DNA of 32,866 nt, taken from contig JBDSJV010000035.1 in assembly GCA_039917225.1 (NCBI GenBank), forward strand, positions 1-32,866. Direction: 5' to 3'. Under the pieces are notes generated by a model, which had not been told where the DNA came from, did no database searches, and saw nothing but the letters and a program-made list of their open reading frames with translations. Below, in pieces: positions 26,546 through 32,837 of the stretch. Positions within the stretch are counted from its first letter, which is position 1, and every line of letters starts with the position of its first letter. The translations under genes and the position numbers were made by a program. The DNA comes from Candidatus Limnocylindrales bacterium. Lineage in GTDB: Bacteria > Chloroflexota > Limnocylindria > Limnocylindrales > CSP1-4.

Positions 26546-27720
26546 AGATCGGGCTTGTCACGCCGTACGTCTATCCACTCCCCGGCGGCGTGAATCAGCA
26601 CGTCCGCTACCTCTACGAGAACCTGCGGCAGCGCGGCCACGACGTCCGGATCATCACCAGCTCCCACGGTCTCCAGCGCGCGTCCCAGGGCGATGTGATC
26701 CGGATCGGGAAGGGCTTCTCGATGCCCGCCAACGGCTCGATGGGCACGATCACCCTGTCGCCGCGCTACCTCTCCCAGGTCCGGGCGGTGCTCGAGCGGG
26801 AAGACTTCGACCTGCTCCATTTCCACGAACCCTTCGTCCCCTTCCTGTCGCTCATCGTCCTCGGGTTGTCGAAGAGCGTGAACGTGGCGACCTTCCACGC
26901 CTACGGTGGCTTCTCCCCGGCCTACGAGTTCGGCTCGAAGGTGATGGGCTCGTATGCGAACCGCCTCCACGGCCGGATCGCCGTATCGGCGGCGGCGCGC
27001 CACTTCATCGACCGGTTCTTTCCGGGTGACTACAAGGTCATCCCCAATGGCGTCGACATCGCCCGATTCCGGCGCGCGGTGCCAATCGCGCGATGGCAGG
27101 ACGGGACTCGCAACATCCTCTTCGTCGGCCGCTTCGAGTCCCGAAAGGGCCTCCTGGATCTCCTCCGCGCCTACCGGATCCTCCGCAAGACCGGGTGTCC
27201 ATGTCGCCTCCTCATCGTCGGCGGTGGGCCACAGGAGCGCGAGGCGCGACGCTATGTCATGACCCGCCGGATGGGCGGAGTCGAGTTCCTTGGAAAGGTC
27301 TCCGATGAAGAGCGGGACGCCCTCTTCAAGACGGCCGATGTGTACGTCTCGCCGGCGACCGGGCGCGAATCGTTCGGGATCGTCCTGCTCGAGGCGATGG
27401 CCGCGGGTACCTCCATCGTCTGCAGCGACATCCACGGCTACAAGGGCGTCGTTCGCCGGGACCGCGACGCGCTGCTGGTGCCACCGAAGGACGCCAAGGC
27501 GCTGGCGCTCGCCATCGGGCGCCTCGTCAATGACGACGAGCTCCGGGCACGGATGGCCGCCTCGGGCCTCGAGCGTGCGAATGAGTTCTCGTGGGAGCGG
27601 GTCACCGGCAAGGTCGAGGACTACTACGGGTTCGTGATCCGTCGTCTCGCGGCGCAGGGTGCGCTGCCTCCCGGCTTCACGGCGGAAGTTCCGCCCCCCA
27701 TCCGTCCCGCTTCCGCCTAG
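26542..27720 (+). CDS. pimA: GT4 glycosyltransferase, PimA-like phosphatidylinositol mannosyltransferase
   Basis: 'MKIGLVTPYVYPLPGGVNQHVRYLYENLRQRGHDVRIIT' parallels the PimA N-terminus. The GT4 E-x7-E region is 'RESFGIVLLEAMAAGTSIVCSD'. Synteny with the PI synthase and acyltransferases supports the call. The symbol rests on context, not on a search. Confidence 0.8.
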   Translation: MKIGLVTPYVYPLPGGVNQHVRYLYENLRQRGHDVRIITSSHGLQRASQGDVIRIGKGFSMPANGSMGTITLSPRYLSQVRAVLEREDFDLLHFHEPFVPFLSLIVLGLSKSVNVATFHAYGGFSPAYEFGSKVMGSYANRLHGRIAVSAAARHFIDRFFPGDYKVIPNGVDIARFRRAVPIARWQDGTRNILFVGRFESRKGLLDLLRAYRILRKTGCPCRLLIVGGGPQEREARRYVMTRRMGGVEFLGKVSDEERDALFKTADVYVSPATGRESFGIVLLEAMAAGTSIVCSDIHGYKGVVRRDRDALLVPPKDAKALALAIGRLVNDDELRARMAASGLERANEFSWERVTGKVEDYYGFVIRRLAAQGALPPGFTAEVPPPIRPASA

Positions 27721-30700: not shown

Positions 30701-32837
30701 GGGTCCCGAGGTCGTAGGCGCGGACCTCATCGCCTCCGACGACCCACAGGCGGTCTCCGGTCACACGTGCCGTCGTGCTCGACTGGTCCCAGCGGGGCTC
30801 CACGACCGCTGCACCCACGGGGGCGCCGAGGTCGCTCGTCGCCGTCGTTCGGTCGTTGCCCCAGGCCACGAGCCCGCCGGCCATGGCGTACTTGGCGAGG
30901 TGCGGGTGCGTCCACTCGTAGATGTCATGGGAGATGCCGTAGCGCCAGTCCTGAAGGAACTCGGTTGCCGTCCGTGGGTGGTAGACCTCGTCGAAGATGA
31001 CCTGGTAGGGCTCGCCCAGACGCCAGATCCGAACCGTGAGGAGGGTCACGGCGAGGACCGCGATCATCCAGAGGTCCAGGCGGTCGATCCGGCCGCCCCC
31101 TTCGCCTGCGTGGTCGCTGCTTCGGTCGCGCCGAATCGGTCGCTCGTTGAGTCGGTGGCGTAGCCAGCCGAGGAAGCCGAGCTCGCCCGATGACGGGCGA
31201 TCGTCCCAGGCCGGGCGGAGGGCCGTCGCTCGAGTCAGGGCAGTCGCTGGGATCGCGCCAGGCTCCGGTCGTGCGAACGAGGTGGTCGGCGGTTGCGGGC
31301 CCGTGAGCCGAGCTTCGGGCTCGGGCTCGGGCTCGGGCTCGGGCTCCGGCTCCGGTTCTGGCTCCGGCTCGGGCTCGGGCCTGACGATCGCGACCTGCAG
31401 TCGCGCCGACGCCGAGCGGCGCAGCTCCGAGAACGCGAAGAGGAGGACGACGGCCTGGATCGTTGCGGCCAGCGCAACGACCGGGAAGCTGCCGAGGGAG
31501 CGGCCCGTTCCCAGCCAGTCATCGATGCCCGGGTTGTTCGGGTAGAGCGTCGTCAGGACGAAGTACATGTTGGCGATCGTGGCCAGGCTCGATGCCACGT
31601 AGGCGATGGTCCAGCGCCATGAGATCGCGGCCAGCATCGCGCCGAGCGCGACCAGCGGATAGAGGTAGCGCTCGTGGACGCGGGTCGGGACGACGAAGAA
31701 CACGAGCGCCAGCACCACGAGCCCGACGAGCATGGTTCGACGGTCGGGTCGCCGGGCGACCAGCGCGCTCACCAGGACGAACAAGGCCAGGGTCAGCGCG
31801 GTGCCCACGACCACGGCCGGAAGCGGCCCGATCGAGAAGGCGCGTCCGCAGTTCGGGGCGAGCATGTCGCAGACCCAGGCGGAGTTGGCGGCGATACCGC
31901 TGCCGTCGAAGGTGACGAGCGCCCACGGATTCCAGGCGTTGACCGAGAGGTACGGATAGCCACCCGCGGTCTTGAAGATCTGGACGATGAGACCGAAGAA
32001 CGAGAGGCCGAAGGGCCACGACAGCGCGAGCGCGGTGACGAGCCCGGCGACGCCGGTCGTCACGATCCGGACGGGCCCGGCCGCTCGGAGCTCCCAGCCG
32101 GTGGTCGAGCGACGGGGAGGAGCTGGTTCCTCGTCGCCGAATCCACCGCCTGGCCAGAGGGCCCGCCGGATGGTCACGGCGGCCACGATTGGAATCAGGA
32201 TCCCCAGCTGGGGCTTGATGAGGGCGCCGATGACGGTCAGGACGGCGGCGCGCTCGGGCCGGTCCCGCCACAGCTCGCGCAATCCGAGGAGCAGGAAGAT
32301 GACGCCGACCGAATCGACCTGGGCCCAGACGGCGCTGTCGAACCAGGTGATCGGATTGACCACCACGATCAGTGCCGCGAGCCGGGCCGACCGACGACTG
32401 GCCCCGAGCTCGAGGGTCATCGACCAGGCGAGATAGGCGAGCGCAACGTCGCCCAGGATCGGCGGGACCTTGATCAGATCGCCGATGCCGCCGAACCCCT
32501 GGCCGATGAGGCCGACGACCCATAGGACGTACAGATAGCCCGGCGTGTAGTCGTGGAAGAAGTCCCGGTCGTAGAAGCCGCCGGGGCCCTGGCTGGCCAG
32601 GTTCGACGCCCAGTACTGGAACGCCGAGATGTCGTTCGCAAAGCCGGAACCGGGCAGGAGGTATGCGATGATGACGCGGAAGATGAGCCCCAGCGCGAGG
32701 AGGATCAGGATGCTGCGCACGCCGTCCCGTGTCCCGGCACGCGCTGTGGTCCCGTCCCGCACGGGCTCACCCGACACGGGGCCAGTCAACCGGATCGGCC
32801 TCCTGCTCGAGCGATGAGGTGGGTGGCAGCGTAGCAC
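27717..32837 (-). CDS. Giant (1706 aa) polytopic membrane glycosyltransferase: N-terminal GT-C domain (PimE/DUF2029/Gpi18-like), (Pro-Glu)11 linker, then GT39/PMT-type mannosyltransferase with a beta-propeller-like insertion
   Basis: Domain 1 (about aa 42-486): 'LPGSGFANDISAFQYWASNL ... FFHDYTPGYLYVLW ... KVPPILGDVALAYL', with many TM helices. Linker: aa 487-508 = PEPEPE... Domain 2: PMT loop-1 signature 'VIFDEVYHPRTATEF' (Asp616-Glu617, 30987-30992) and 'THPHLAKY'. A non-hydrophobic insert of ~340 aa follows, then 'YAWRLPGVLAGVVMAMLLYLLAR'. The PMT C-terminal signature is 'SSPWWAWPFDFKPVWFY ... GNLVAWW'. The true start is uncertain because the first ~40 codons are Arg/Pro-rich. Confidence 0.85.
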   Translation of the reverse strand: MLRCHPPHRSSRRPIRLTGPVSGEPVRDGTTARAGTRDGVRSILILLALGLIFRVIIAYLLPGSGFANDISAFQYWASNLASQGPGGFYDRDFFHDYTPGYLYVLWVVGLIGQGFGGIGDLIKVPPILGDVALAYLAWSMTLELGASRRSARLAALIVVVNPITWFDSAVWAQVDSVGVIFLLLGLRELWRDRPERAAVLTVIGALIKPQLGILIPIVAAVTIRRALWPGGGFGDEEPAPPRRSTTGWELRAAGPVRIVTTGVAGLVTALALSWPFGLSFFGLIVQIFKTAGGYPYLSVNAWNPWALVTFDGSGIAANSAWVCDMLAPNCGRAFSIGPLPAVVVGTALTLALFVLVSALVARRPDRRTMLVGLVVLALVFFVVPTRVHERYLYPLVALGAMLAAISWRWTIAYVASSLATIANMYFVLTTLYPNNPGIDDWLGTGRSLGSFPVVALAATIQAVVLLFAFSELRRSASARLQVAIVRPEPEPEPEPEPEPEPEPEPEPEARLTGPQPPTTSFARPEPGAIPATALTRATALRPAWDDRPSSGELGFLGWLRHRLNERPIRRDRSSDHAGEGGGRIDRLDLWMIAVLAVTLLTVRIWRLGEPYQVIFDEVYHPRTATEFLQDWRYGISHDIYEWTHPHLAKYAMAGGLVAWGNDRTTATSDLGAPVGAAVVEPRWDQSSTTARVTGDRLWVVGGDEVRAYDLGTRGLAAQIALPGAASLAVDAVAHRVLVGTGDGRIVAIDTTVLDAARLAGSPPAAPPVPTPFATLERPVSSLAVTPDGGTVVVILSPGVAADTWAAVVLDAESAEEVGRAPVGPVEAISNAGTGAVALATEAGVAFFDTSTASITTTVGLEGAPGGMAIVTNLDKDRLYVSILTPDGPRVAVVTAPGASGVPAVDSTFELPGAEAGWVGYDAATQMIHVLGTNPETGSPTVYVVEPHGNAVYADAQLPFAPAALALDANREYPSSDREQLMAFDSRGAVAAVDVGHHAYAWRLPGVLAGVVMAMLLYLLARILFRRREVAVLAAFLIVVDGMLFAQSRIGMNDAYVGLGIVAAYALFAAIWRSGASRARWLAFWLVMPLIGVSLGLALAAKWVAAYAVGALGILVLARSALGRTLLVAGLIAATTVLGYLALSVPEGQSGANYLFMAIMVGLTLATAAATVLHPIAWTDEEERLLTWGPAALGAVVFGVALLGGRADQEIVLGPVAFTAQELAFALVLLSLALHAVVRFVGRWGFGPRAAAPAADDPARLLPAPSAAPEGWLRPGALLGLPMVWTLFCLVAIPAALYVLSYVPWAFVADHQLVAGWPSGHGGQTLADLTGQMYRYHNNLSSPHAASSPWWAWPFDFKPVWFYQEGFAGGTAAGIYSAGNLVAWWISIPALAFAAWQAFVRRSPALALVIIAFAVQWLAWSRIDRAAFQYHYYTSLPFVFLALAYFLAELWHGASRRTWLLARLSAAAAVLAPTTLWLFHRPLCGFVRVDAVNPTSQACPTLIPDFLLSGRAAAIAVVVGIGVLLVVRLLLALADEDGGDGVPFRIRLRNAALAAIGISLGFVVASTFFDDTPIVTSSNIPVEPIALIVTIALVPLAAFVATARDARRLVAGLLVAMAGWFVLWYPNISGLPLPQAMANAYQGFLPTYVYPFQFPVSTVDRSGPAPSLLSLQPAILLIALTGVVIMVAYAVWVWRVAAVEGSADADR
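31314..31379 (-). repeat. In-frame hexanucleotide tandem repeat, 11 units, encoding (Pro-Glu)11
   Basis: The plus strand reads TTCGGG CTCGGG CTCGGG CTCGGG CTCGGG CTCCGG CTCCGG TTCTGG CTCCGG CTCGGG CTCGGG. On the minus strand this is CCC/CCG/CCA-GAG/GAA repeated, aa 487-508 of the giant ORF. Confidence 0.95.

Follow-up and report, generated by a model that had tools for sequence, protein, structure and literature searches.

The window analysed here, 32,866 nucleotides of contig JBDSJV010000035.1 (assembly GCA_039917225.1) from Candidatus Limnocylindrales (Chloroflexota), carries close to its end a single open reading frame (ORF) of 1706 codons on the reverse strand. The gene is predicted to encode two complete GT-C glycosyltransferase modules, which are joined by a variable low-complexity linker and have invariant candidate catalytic residues in both. 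The features of the locus are compiled in Table 1, and all residue numbers (aa) count from the GTG start of this ORF. An earlier note on this DNA had described one ORF with two modules, a (PE)11 linker and a Pro/Arg-rich stretch, and this arrangement is present together with all the motifs that had been quoted (FANDISAFQYW, DYTPGYLYVLW, VIFDEVYH, HPHLAKY, SSPWWAWPF and GNLVAWW). A beta-propeller insertion and an extra transmembrane tail, both described below, were absent from that description.

Table 1. Features of the giant gene and its neighbours, with positions counted from the first letter of the window (PMT, protein O-mannosyltransferase; PIP, phosphatidylinositol phosphate; PIM, phosphatidylinositol mannoside)
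Feature	Positions	Strand	Basis or remark
Whole ORF, 1706 codons plus stop	27717..32837	-	GTG start; stop codon 27717-27719; full-length homologues found
Probable translation start: AGGAGG 32804-32799, 9-nt spacer, TTG 32789-32787	32787..32804	-	Read from the sequence
N-terminal GT-C module, aa 40-475	31413..32720	-	AlphaFold2 and Foldseek; predicted compact all-helical polytopic enzyme
Low-complexity linker, aa 476-585	31083..31412	-	Probably cytoplasmic; contains (PE)11
PMT module, first part, aa 586-663: first transmembrane helix, first outer loop, D616-E617, H644-P-H646...K649	30849..31082	-	Pfam PMT; Pmt4 alignment
Seven-bladed beta-propeller, aa 664-993 (~330 residues), in first outer loop of PMT module	29859..30848	-	AlphaFold2 and Foldseek
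PMT transmembrane core, aa 994-1320: R1048...D1053 (Rx4D), K1101	28878..29858	-	Pfam PMT, aa 997-1117
PMT_4TMC region, aa 1321-1495: H1336, SSPWWAWP, R1421-x-D-R1424-x-x-F1427	28353..28877	-	Pfam PF16192; Pmt4 551-609 aligned
C-terminal extension, aa 1496-1706 (~210 residues): about five further transmembrane helices and a conserved loop	27720..28352	-	Model; no family match
PimA-like GT4 glycosyltransferase, convergent neighbour	26545..27720	+	Pfam GT4 domains; PimA best solved relative
PHP phosphoesterase	~25742-26545	+	Pfam
PatA-like acyltransferases, tandem pair	23707-24717 and 24714-25739	+	PatA, the PIM acyltransferase, best match in both cases
Ino1, inositol-3-phosphate synthase	~22556-23710	+	Pfam; NCBIfam best match
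PIP-synthase-like CDP-alcohol transferase	21579-22418	+	Pfam; NCBIfam best matches PIP synthases
ArsR-type helix-turn-helix regulator	21334-21744	+	Pfam

A conserved giant gene

The ORF is a genuine gene that is conserved across an uncultured lineage of Chloroflexota. Homologues at 53-89% identity over 99% of the query were obtained from 5.8 billion searched proteins; they form more than 120 clusters with lengths of 1690-1875 aa, and almost all of them come from metagenome-assembled genomes of Chloroflexota or Candidatus Limnocylindria. An exact look-up returned no database record for the exact sequence of the window protein; generic names such as 'phospholipid carrier-dependent glycosyltransferase' and 'Gpi18-like mannosyltransferase' are already attached to this architecture. 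Frame-by-frame base composition is of coding type in a single frame over the whole ORF, with G+C fractions of 0.88 at third (GC3) and 0.52 at second codon positions (GC2), and the long ORFs on the opposite strand are the usual by-product of DNA with 70% G+C. As residues 1-25 are gapped in 67% of the homologues, and as an AGGAGG precedes a downstream TTG codon, the GTG appears to lie too far upstream. The TTG, which agrees with the point where the homologue alignments begin, is probably the real start, and the product would then have about 1690 aa.

The N-terminal half is probably an active GT-C enzyme

The N-terminal half was modelled by AlphaFold2 from 34 sequences with high confidence (predicted local distance difference test, pLDDT, 92; predicted template-modelling score, pTM, 0.92). 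All seven Foldseek matches in the PDB at E<=0.001 are GT-C enzymes or PIG-U. The best match is ALG6 (6snh; E 1.7e-6, template-modelling score, TM-score, 0.73). Glycosylphosphatidylinositol (GPI) mannosyltransferase I (GPI-MT-I; 9wno, 0.64-0.69), ALG3 (9s6r, 0.58-0.65), PIG-U (8imx, 7w72 and 7wld, 0.54-0.61) and, at ranks 7-8, PimE (9dm5 and 9dm7, 0.55-0.66) also match, and ArnT, STT3, Pmt4 and the Emb proteins are found lower in the list. The earlier note had suggested a 'PimE / DUF2029 / Gpi18-type' transferase, with a lack of any GT-C similarity as the outcome that would speak against it. The GT-C fold was borne out by the model and its significant matches, whereas the assignment to GT87 and PimE was not: the Pfam GT87 family (PF09594) reaches 23.1 bits against a cut-off of 25, and this only over aa 97-219. 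Pfam Alg6_Alg8 is likewise below threshold (E 0.011). A minority of orthologues have a PF09594 match in precomputed annotations, and the weak Pfam matches of relatives of this half are scattered over GT87, PIG-U, Alg6_Alg8 and PMT_2, which all belong to the GT-C clan. As a profile of the N-module family, run against the sequences of solved structures, gave chance matches only and found neither PimE nor ALG6 nor PIG-U, the family placement rests on the fold.

Several residues of this half (D69, D130, K208-P-Q210, N303/W305 and H388-E-R-Y391) are invariant in 120/120 orthologues and also in free-standing relatives at 34-42% identity. Judged from the secondary structure of the model and not from a superposition, D69 in the FANDISAF motif would lie just after the first transmembrane helix, in the first extracytoplasmic loop. 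We compared these positions with D58, K195, W319 and H322 of PimE, of which D58 is catalytic and K195 and H322 bind phosphate (PMC12041525). D69, K208 and H388 show the same order and a similar spacing as D58, K195 and H322, an analogy of arrangement that is not based on a residue-level alignment to PimE. The model and the invariant residues thus point to a GT-C enzyme, probably an active one, that is not assignable to GT87. Among 1.84 billion representatives, searched exhaustively with phmmer, the N-module has 3537 relatives at E<=0.001, and these include free-standing proteins of 440-500 aa in unrelated neighbourhoods; the N-module is therefore an autonomous unit. For its relatives of about 1000 aa, Pfam gave no clear domain architecture.

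The C-terminal half combines PMT hallmarks with a propeller

In the C-terminal half (aa 586-1706), two Pfam domains of protein O-mannosyltransferases (PMTs) exceed their cut-offs, PMT (PF02366) with 55.3 bits for the whole protein against 22.7, and PMT_4TMC (PF16192) with 40.8 bits against 32.4. The only relatives by sequence among solved membrane proteins are Pmt4 and Pmt1, which align in three collinear blocks. The DE motif, the Asp of the second-loop Rx4-6D motif and the late-loop Rx2Y/F motif are essential in Mycobacterium tuberculosis Pmt and conserved in yeast PMTs (PMC12331936), the reference positions being D176 for the second-loop Asp of MtPMT, and R441/Y444 in MtPMT and R649/F652 in ScPmt1 for Rx2Y/F. 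In the giant protein, D616-E617 is aligned to the DE motif of Pmt4, R1048 and D1053 are aligned to its R...D pair, and R1424-A-A-F1427 is of the Rx2Y/F type in a segment before which the pairwise alignments to Pmt4 and Pmt1 stop. All these residues are invariant in 120/120 sequences, and H644-P-H646...K649, K1101, H1336, SSPWWAWP and R1421 are invariant as well.

The protein departs from a plain PMT by an insertion in the first outer loop, where the HPHLAKY helix is separated from the transmembrane helix that follows it by about 370 residues, compared with about 47 in Pmt4. AlphaFold2 modelled the C-terminal half with a pLDDT of 84.8 and a pTM of 0.88, and aa 664-993 form about 28 strands in this model, with a pLDDT of about 90. 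Foldseek matches this region to seven-bladed propellers (TM-scores 0.65-0.80). One of them, the YVTN propeller from the S-layer protein of an archaeon (1l0q), is also the best, albeit weak, sequence-profile match (E 3.7e-4). With Pfam, no family was found to cover the domain in eight orthologues, in which only scattered weak propeller matches occurred. In five relatives (P0044, P0051, P0069, P0099 and P0114), the propeller is interrupted by about 80 additional residues, for which the sequence suggests a helical structure. As the top 50 Foldseek matches of the whole C-terminal half are all propellers, the PMT assignment rests on the Pfam domains and the collinear alignments.

At the C-terminus, the extension beyond the PMT_4TMC region has a length of 207-282 aa in the homologues, and its loop contains the invariant residues YPN...LPLP...FQFPV; the model confidence is lower here. 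The earlier note had spoken of a complete GT39/PMT-type enzyme. That the PMT domains are present is correct, but the propeller insertion, the extra tail and a score of 46.8 bits against a cut-off of 800 with the NCBIfam equivalog model of actinobacterial Pmt (NF058602) do not fit a plain PMT. By its sequence, the C-terminal half is best described as a PMT-family (GT39-like) enzyme that is not a Pmt orthologue.

The fusion is maintained across the lineage

For a survey of the locus, one genome per GTDB species was used. At least 585 loci contain a relative of the N-terminal half, and the best 80 of them, all from the same Chloroflexota lineage as the window, were frame-walked from the N-module; the nearest is Candidatus Limnocylindrales Co_metawrap_434 at 93% identity. 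One uninterrupted ORF of 1682-1847 codons was found in 55 loci, 17 are open up to the contig end, and eight stop early. The question raised by the earlier note, whether orthologues are split or fused, is hence answered by 55/63 species-level loci that reach a stop codon in the fused form, and fused homologues are still found at 35-40% identity. The linker behaves very differently from the halves that it joins. Across 120 sequences, it comprises 68-146 aa that are rich in A/P/G/D/E, cannot be aligned and differ in every lineage. The identity per 25-residue block is 0.65-0.93 in both halves and 0.17-0.25, with gaps, in the linker, and we regard both halves as being under strong constraint on this basis.

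The (PE)11 run at 31315-31380 is a 6-bp tandem repeat in 11 copies that is followed by the Pro/Arg-rich stretch, and the earlier note had considered a misassembly at this repeat. Two separate genes joined by assembly or annotation at this point would be in line with the perfect-looking 66-bp repeat at the junction and with the two or three genes that some assemblies call here. However, (PE)>=3 occurs in only 4/120 linkers, and in the 55 independent species-level loci a single frame stays open across linkers that are unrelated in sequence. These comparisons exclude that two genes were joined into a chimera at the repeat, and an artefact of this kind has a negligible probability. The gene calls that are split in long-read contigs do not speak for it either. 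Among the eight early-stop loci, five are long-read contigs. According to tblastn, homology resumes there in a different frame after shifts that lie inside conserved domains, as is also the case in L004 and L005, and these split calls are therefore indel errors. For this reason, we rejected a natural split for the apparently divided orthologues (450-780 aa) on megabase contigs, which stem from long-read assemblies with such frame changes. Of the other three early-stop loci, L016 has its shift within the first transmembrane helix of the PMT half, L060 represents a different fusion that is described below, and L022 changes frame in the linker. In L004, L005, L026, L031, L035, L038 and L072 (ERZ250394xx and MFD contigs), the gene is broken into two to four calls. 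Frameshift-broken calls make 'stand-alone' N-modules look more numerous in protein databases than they are. In two short-read loci, L022 (the same sequence as L087 and L088) and the further locus L089, the frame change is confined to the linker, and two overlapping genes remain adjacent; going by this position of the frame change, these may be true fissions.

The fusion theme recurs. In L060 (7001-10015 of DASQFM010000038.1), an ORF of 1004 codons combines an N-module relative (53% identity) with a different polytopic C-terminal domain that has a weak PMT_2 match (E 0.007) and no propeller, which represents a second kind of N-module fusion. Other relatives have large inserts between or within the modules, and in P0235 (2390 aa) and P0160 (2092 aa) about 930 extra residues lie between the two modules.

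Neighbouring genes

The giant gene converges with a gene for a GT4 glycosyltransferase whose best solved relative is PimA (2gej and 4n9w, E 3e-62 over residues 1-362; the next GT4 follows at 4e-20). The stop codons of the two genes are both TAG, are shifted by one base against each other on opposite strands and lie within the palindrome CTAG at 27717-27720, with no intergenic terminator, and L003 and L089 show the same tail-to-tail overlap of 4 bp. In the genes for the acyltransferases, the PIP-synthase-like protein and Ino1, the Pfam domains pass, and the NCBIfam top matches remain below the equivalog cut-offs: 135 and 105 bits versus 209 for PIM acyltransferase, 132 versus 180 and 114 versus 170 for PIP synthases, and 536 versus 638 for Ino1. 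The two acyltransferase genes overlap by 4 bp, and the pair is kept in relatives, as is the order of all genes of this phosphatidylinositol (PI)/PIM type. The PHP gene lies between the PatA-like and PimA-like genes in every relative examined, and its product would be a candidate phosphatase for the conversion of PIP to PI. 'PIM operon', as the earlier note had named the neighbours, is a fair description, and the giant gene indeed abuts it. The giant gene is not a member of this operon, however, because it is convergent on the opposite strand and hence not co-transcribed.

In relatives (L001-L005 and L089), a divergent operon lies upstream of the giant gene, in the region beyond the end of our window. 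It encodes an unannotated polytopic protein of 470-500 aa with at least nine hydrophobic peaks and no Pfam match, a TMEM260-like GT-C protein that is a putative O-mannosyltransferase (present in 47/55 loci), and a GT2 whose best matches are the polyprenyl-phosphate sugar synthases PgfS, PpgS, ArnC and AglJ (45/55 loci). The wider locus of the relatives is thus predicted to hold three or four GT-C-type modules.

Proposed topology and function

PMTs start in the cytoplasm. The flanks of the linker are Arg-rich on both sides, and PimE has 12 transmembrane helices with both termini in the cytoplasm. For these reasons, the linker is most simply placed in the cytoplasm, which would bring both active sites and the propeller to the outside of the membrane. 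From the context, both halves would draw on polyprenol-phosphate-hexose, probably made by the GT2 of the divergent operon of the relatives, and they may act in turn on a common acceptor. The PMT half could place the first hexose on Ser/Thr residues of exported envelope proteins that are held by the propeller, and the N-terminal half could then add the next sugar. We tentatively propose such a pair of tethered, outward-facing GT-C enzymes that act in sequence on exported proteins, a reading that we consider to have somewhat less than an even chance and that we slightly favour over the extension of a lipoglycan. The identity of the acceptor is its weakest step. To our knowledge, all characterised GT39 enzymes O-mannosylate proteins, and it is this fact, together with an apparently complete set of PMT hallmarks and with the TMEM260-like gene and the PgfS-like GT2 alongside, that tips the balance slightly towards a protein acceptor. 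Several points weigh against our proposal. The convergent GT4 is the next gene in 53/55 complete loci, and the other two loci are cut by contig ends. This close and almost universal proximity to a set of PimA, PatA and PIP synthase type points towards a glycolipid acceptor. Three of the five best structural families of the N-terminal half (GPI-MT-I, PIG-U and PimE) handle PI-based glycolipids. The propeller is found where no known PMT has one, and given the low NF058602 score as well, the acceptor may differ. Moreover, we infer the sequential action of the halves from the fusion alone, and the lineage is known here from metagenome assemblies alone.

The most serious competitor, which we nevertheless regard as rather unlikely, is a lipoglycan machine. 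Here, the N-terminal half and the PMT-like half would extend an acylated PI-mannoside, made by the PimA-like and PatA-like enzymes and flipped across the membrane, into a lipomannan-like polymer, with the propeller holding the glycan. The near-constant GT4 neighbour, which is retained even in a homologue at 40% identity (L090), the overlapping stop codons, the full PI/PIM-type set of genes, the structural relatives GPI-MT-I, PIG-U and PimE and those orthologues that exceed the Pfam GT87 threshold all agree with this reading. On the other hand, the convergent genes are not co-transcribed, and synteny within the order may simply reflect little rearrangement near the origin, as dnaA or dnaN is 10 kb away in relatives. 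A distant fused homologue, P0218 (1524 aa, 37% identical overall), lies among unrelated genes, so the fusion does not depend on PIM-type neighbours. Furthermore, the C-terminal half appears to have every sequence hallmark of a PMT, no characterised GT39 enzyme is known to act on lipids, and the best structural match of the N-terminal half is ALG6 and not PimE. In a bolder version, less probable still, the protein would act as an assembly line with two covalently linked GT-C sites and would finish a lipoglycan anchored on PI outside Actinobacteria. Its PMT fold would have been redirected from proteins to a glycan or glycolipid by the propeller beside the catalytic Asp, and its ALG6/GPI-MT-I-like partner would provide the preceding or following sugar. 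If true, this would be the bacterial equivalent of the lumenal GT-C reactions that follow one another in eukaryotic GPI and N-glycan assembly.

The two halves could also have independent activities and be tethered merely by a common donor or membrane site, for example with one half acting on a glycolipid and the other on a protein, without any hand-over. The free-standing N-module relatives in unrelated contexts, the rare orthologues that are split exactly in the linker with the genes still adjacent, and the length, variability and low complexity of the linker would be compatible with this. We consider it improbable, as almost every lineage retains the fusion, even at 35-40% identity, and as L060 combines the N-module with a different polytopic domain of PMT_2-like type, which suggests a recurring functional pairing. 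Even less can be said for a non-catalytic half that serves as scaffold or substrate-binding subunit, in the way of PIG-U in the GPI transamidase, and that replaces the usual second PMT subunit. PIG-U is indeed among the top structural matches, some relatives match the Pfam PIG-U model, and PMTs are known to work as dimers (PDB entries 6p25 and 9i5k are among the matches). However, none of the 120 orthologues or of the free-standing relatives deviates at the first-loop Asp, the Lys and the His of the N-terminal half, whose arrangement recalls that of the catalytic and phosphate-binding residues of PimE, and we regard a scaffold function as very unlikely.

Relation to known systems

The components of the giant protein are familiar, but their combination is not described in the literature that we found. 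In the literature on fused or tandem GT-C enzymes, GT39 enzymes with a propeller, COG5542/DUF2029, Limnocylindria glycosyltransferases and PIMs in Chloroflexi, we found no account of a covalent pair of different GT-C families or of a PMT whose first outer loop contains a propeller, and no characterised member of this giant fusion family. As far as we know, successive GT-C enzymes are always separate polypeptides, as in ALG3/9/12, PIG-M/V/B, PimE/MptA/MptB and EmbA/B/C.

The C-terminal half shares with the GT39 PMTs, such as M. tuberculosis Pmt (Rv1002c), yeast Pmt1-Pmt2 and Pmt4, the combination of PMT and PMT_4TMC domains, the DE motif in the first outer loop, the Rx4D motif in the second, a probable RxxF/Y motif in the 4TMC region and presumably the polyprenol-phosphate-hexose donor, and like the bacterial PMTs it has no MIR domain. 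It differs from them in the propeller of the first outer loop, in the additional C-terminal residues with their transmembrane helices and in its covalent connection to a second, unrelated GT-C module, and the giant protein lies far below the equivalog model of the actinobacterial Pmt. Similarly, the N-terminal half resembles PimE and the GT87 enzymes, mycobacterial mannosyltransferases that depend on polyprenol-phosphate-mannose, in its compact GT-C fold, probably in the arrangement of an invariant Asp, Lys and His and in the genomic location of its gene beside pimA-like and patA-like genes. In contrast to them, it scores below the Pfam GT87 threshold and has no sequence-level match to PimE among solved structures, it is structurally closer to ALG6 and GPI-MT-I, and it is fused to a PMT. 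ALG6 (GT57) and GPI-MT-I (PIG-M/Gpi14, GT50), which provide the best structural matches, are enzymes of the eukaryotic endoplasmic reticulum (ER), and several members of the N-half family have weak Pfam Alg6_Alg8 matches; the N-terminal half, however, is bacterial and has a sequence identity of only 14-15% to them.

Outward-facing non-catalytic domains on a GT-C core are known from the MIR domains of PMTs, the TPR domains of TMTC and TMEM260, the WW-like domain of MtPMT and the carbohydrate-binding modules of AftD and the Emb proteins, and as in these enzymes, the attached domain presumably selects the acceptor. Their domains are found in a later loop or at the C-terminus, whereas the giant protein has a beta-propeller in the first outer loop, beside the catalytic Asp. 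Two GT-C cores side by side in the membrane are also seen in the non-covalent pairs Pmt1-Pmt2 and EmbA-EmbB, but the cores described here belong to different families and are covalently joined.

When two different GT-C families are fused and the fusion is conserved, this identifies the enzymes that cooperate, and such a natural fusion offers a single construct for structural studies of the hand-over between two transferases that use lipid-linked sugars. The propeller beside the catalytic loop of a PMT would be a new solution for acceptor recognition, besides the MIR, TPR and WW-like domains of the known O-mannosyltransferases. The locus further indicates PIM-type glycolipids and an elaborate outward-facing glycosylation in abundant uncultured soil and freshwater Chloroflexota, which bears on the make-up of their cell envelope. 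Bacterial roots have been proposed for the lumenal GT-C enzymes of the ER, and the closeness of the N-terminal half to ALG6 and GPI-MT-I is relevant to this proposal (PMC4973528).

Elsewhere in the window, two ORFs with coding-type GC3 and no Pfam match are found at 11762-12949 on the reverse and at 13190-13912 on the forward strand. Complex I membrane subunits are encoded at 1802-8030, a sortase-like ORF lies at 8775-9497, and glutamate dehydrogenase is encoded at 18726-20063.

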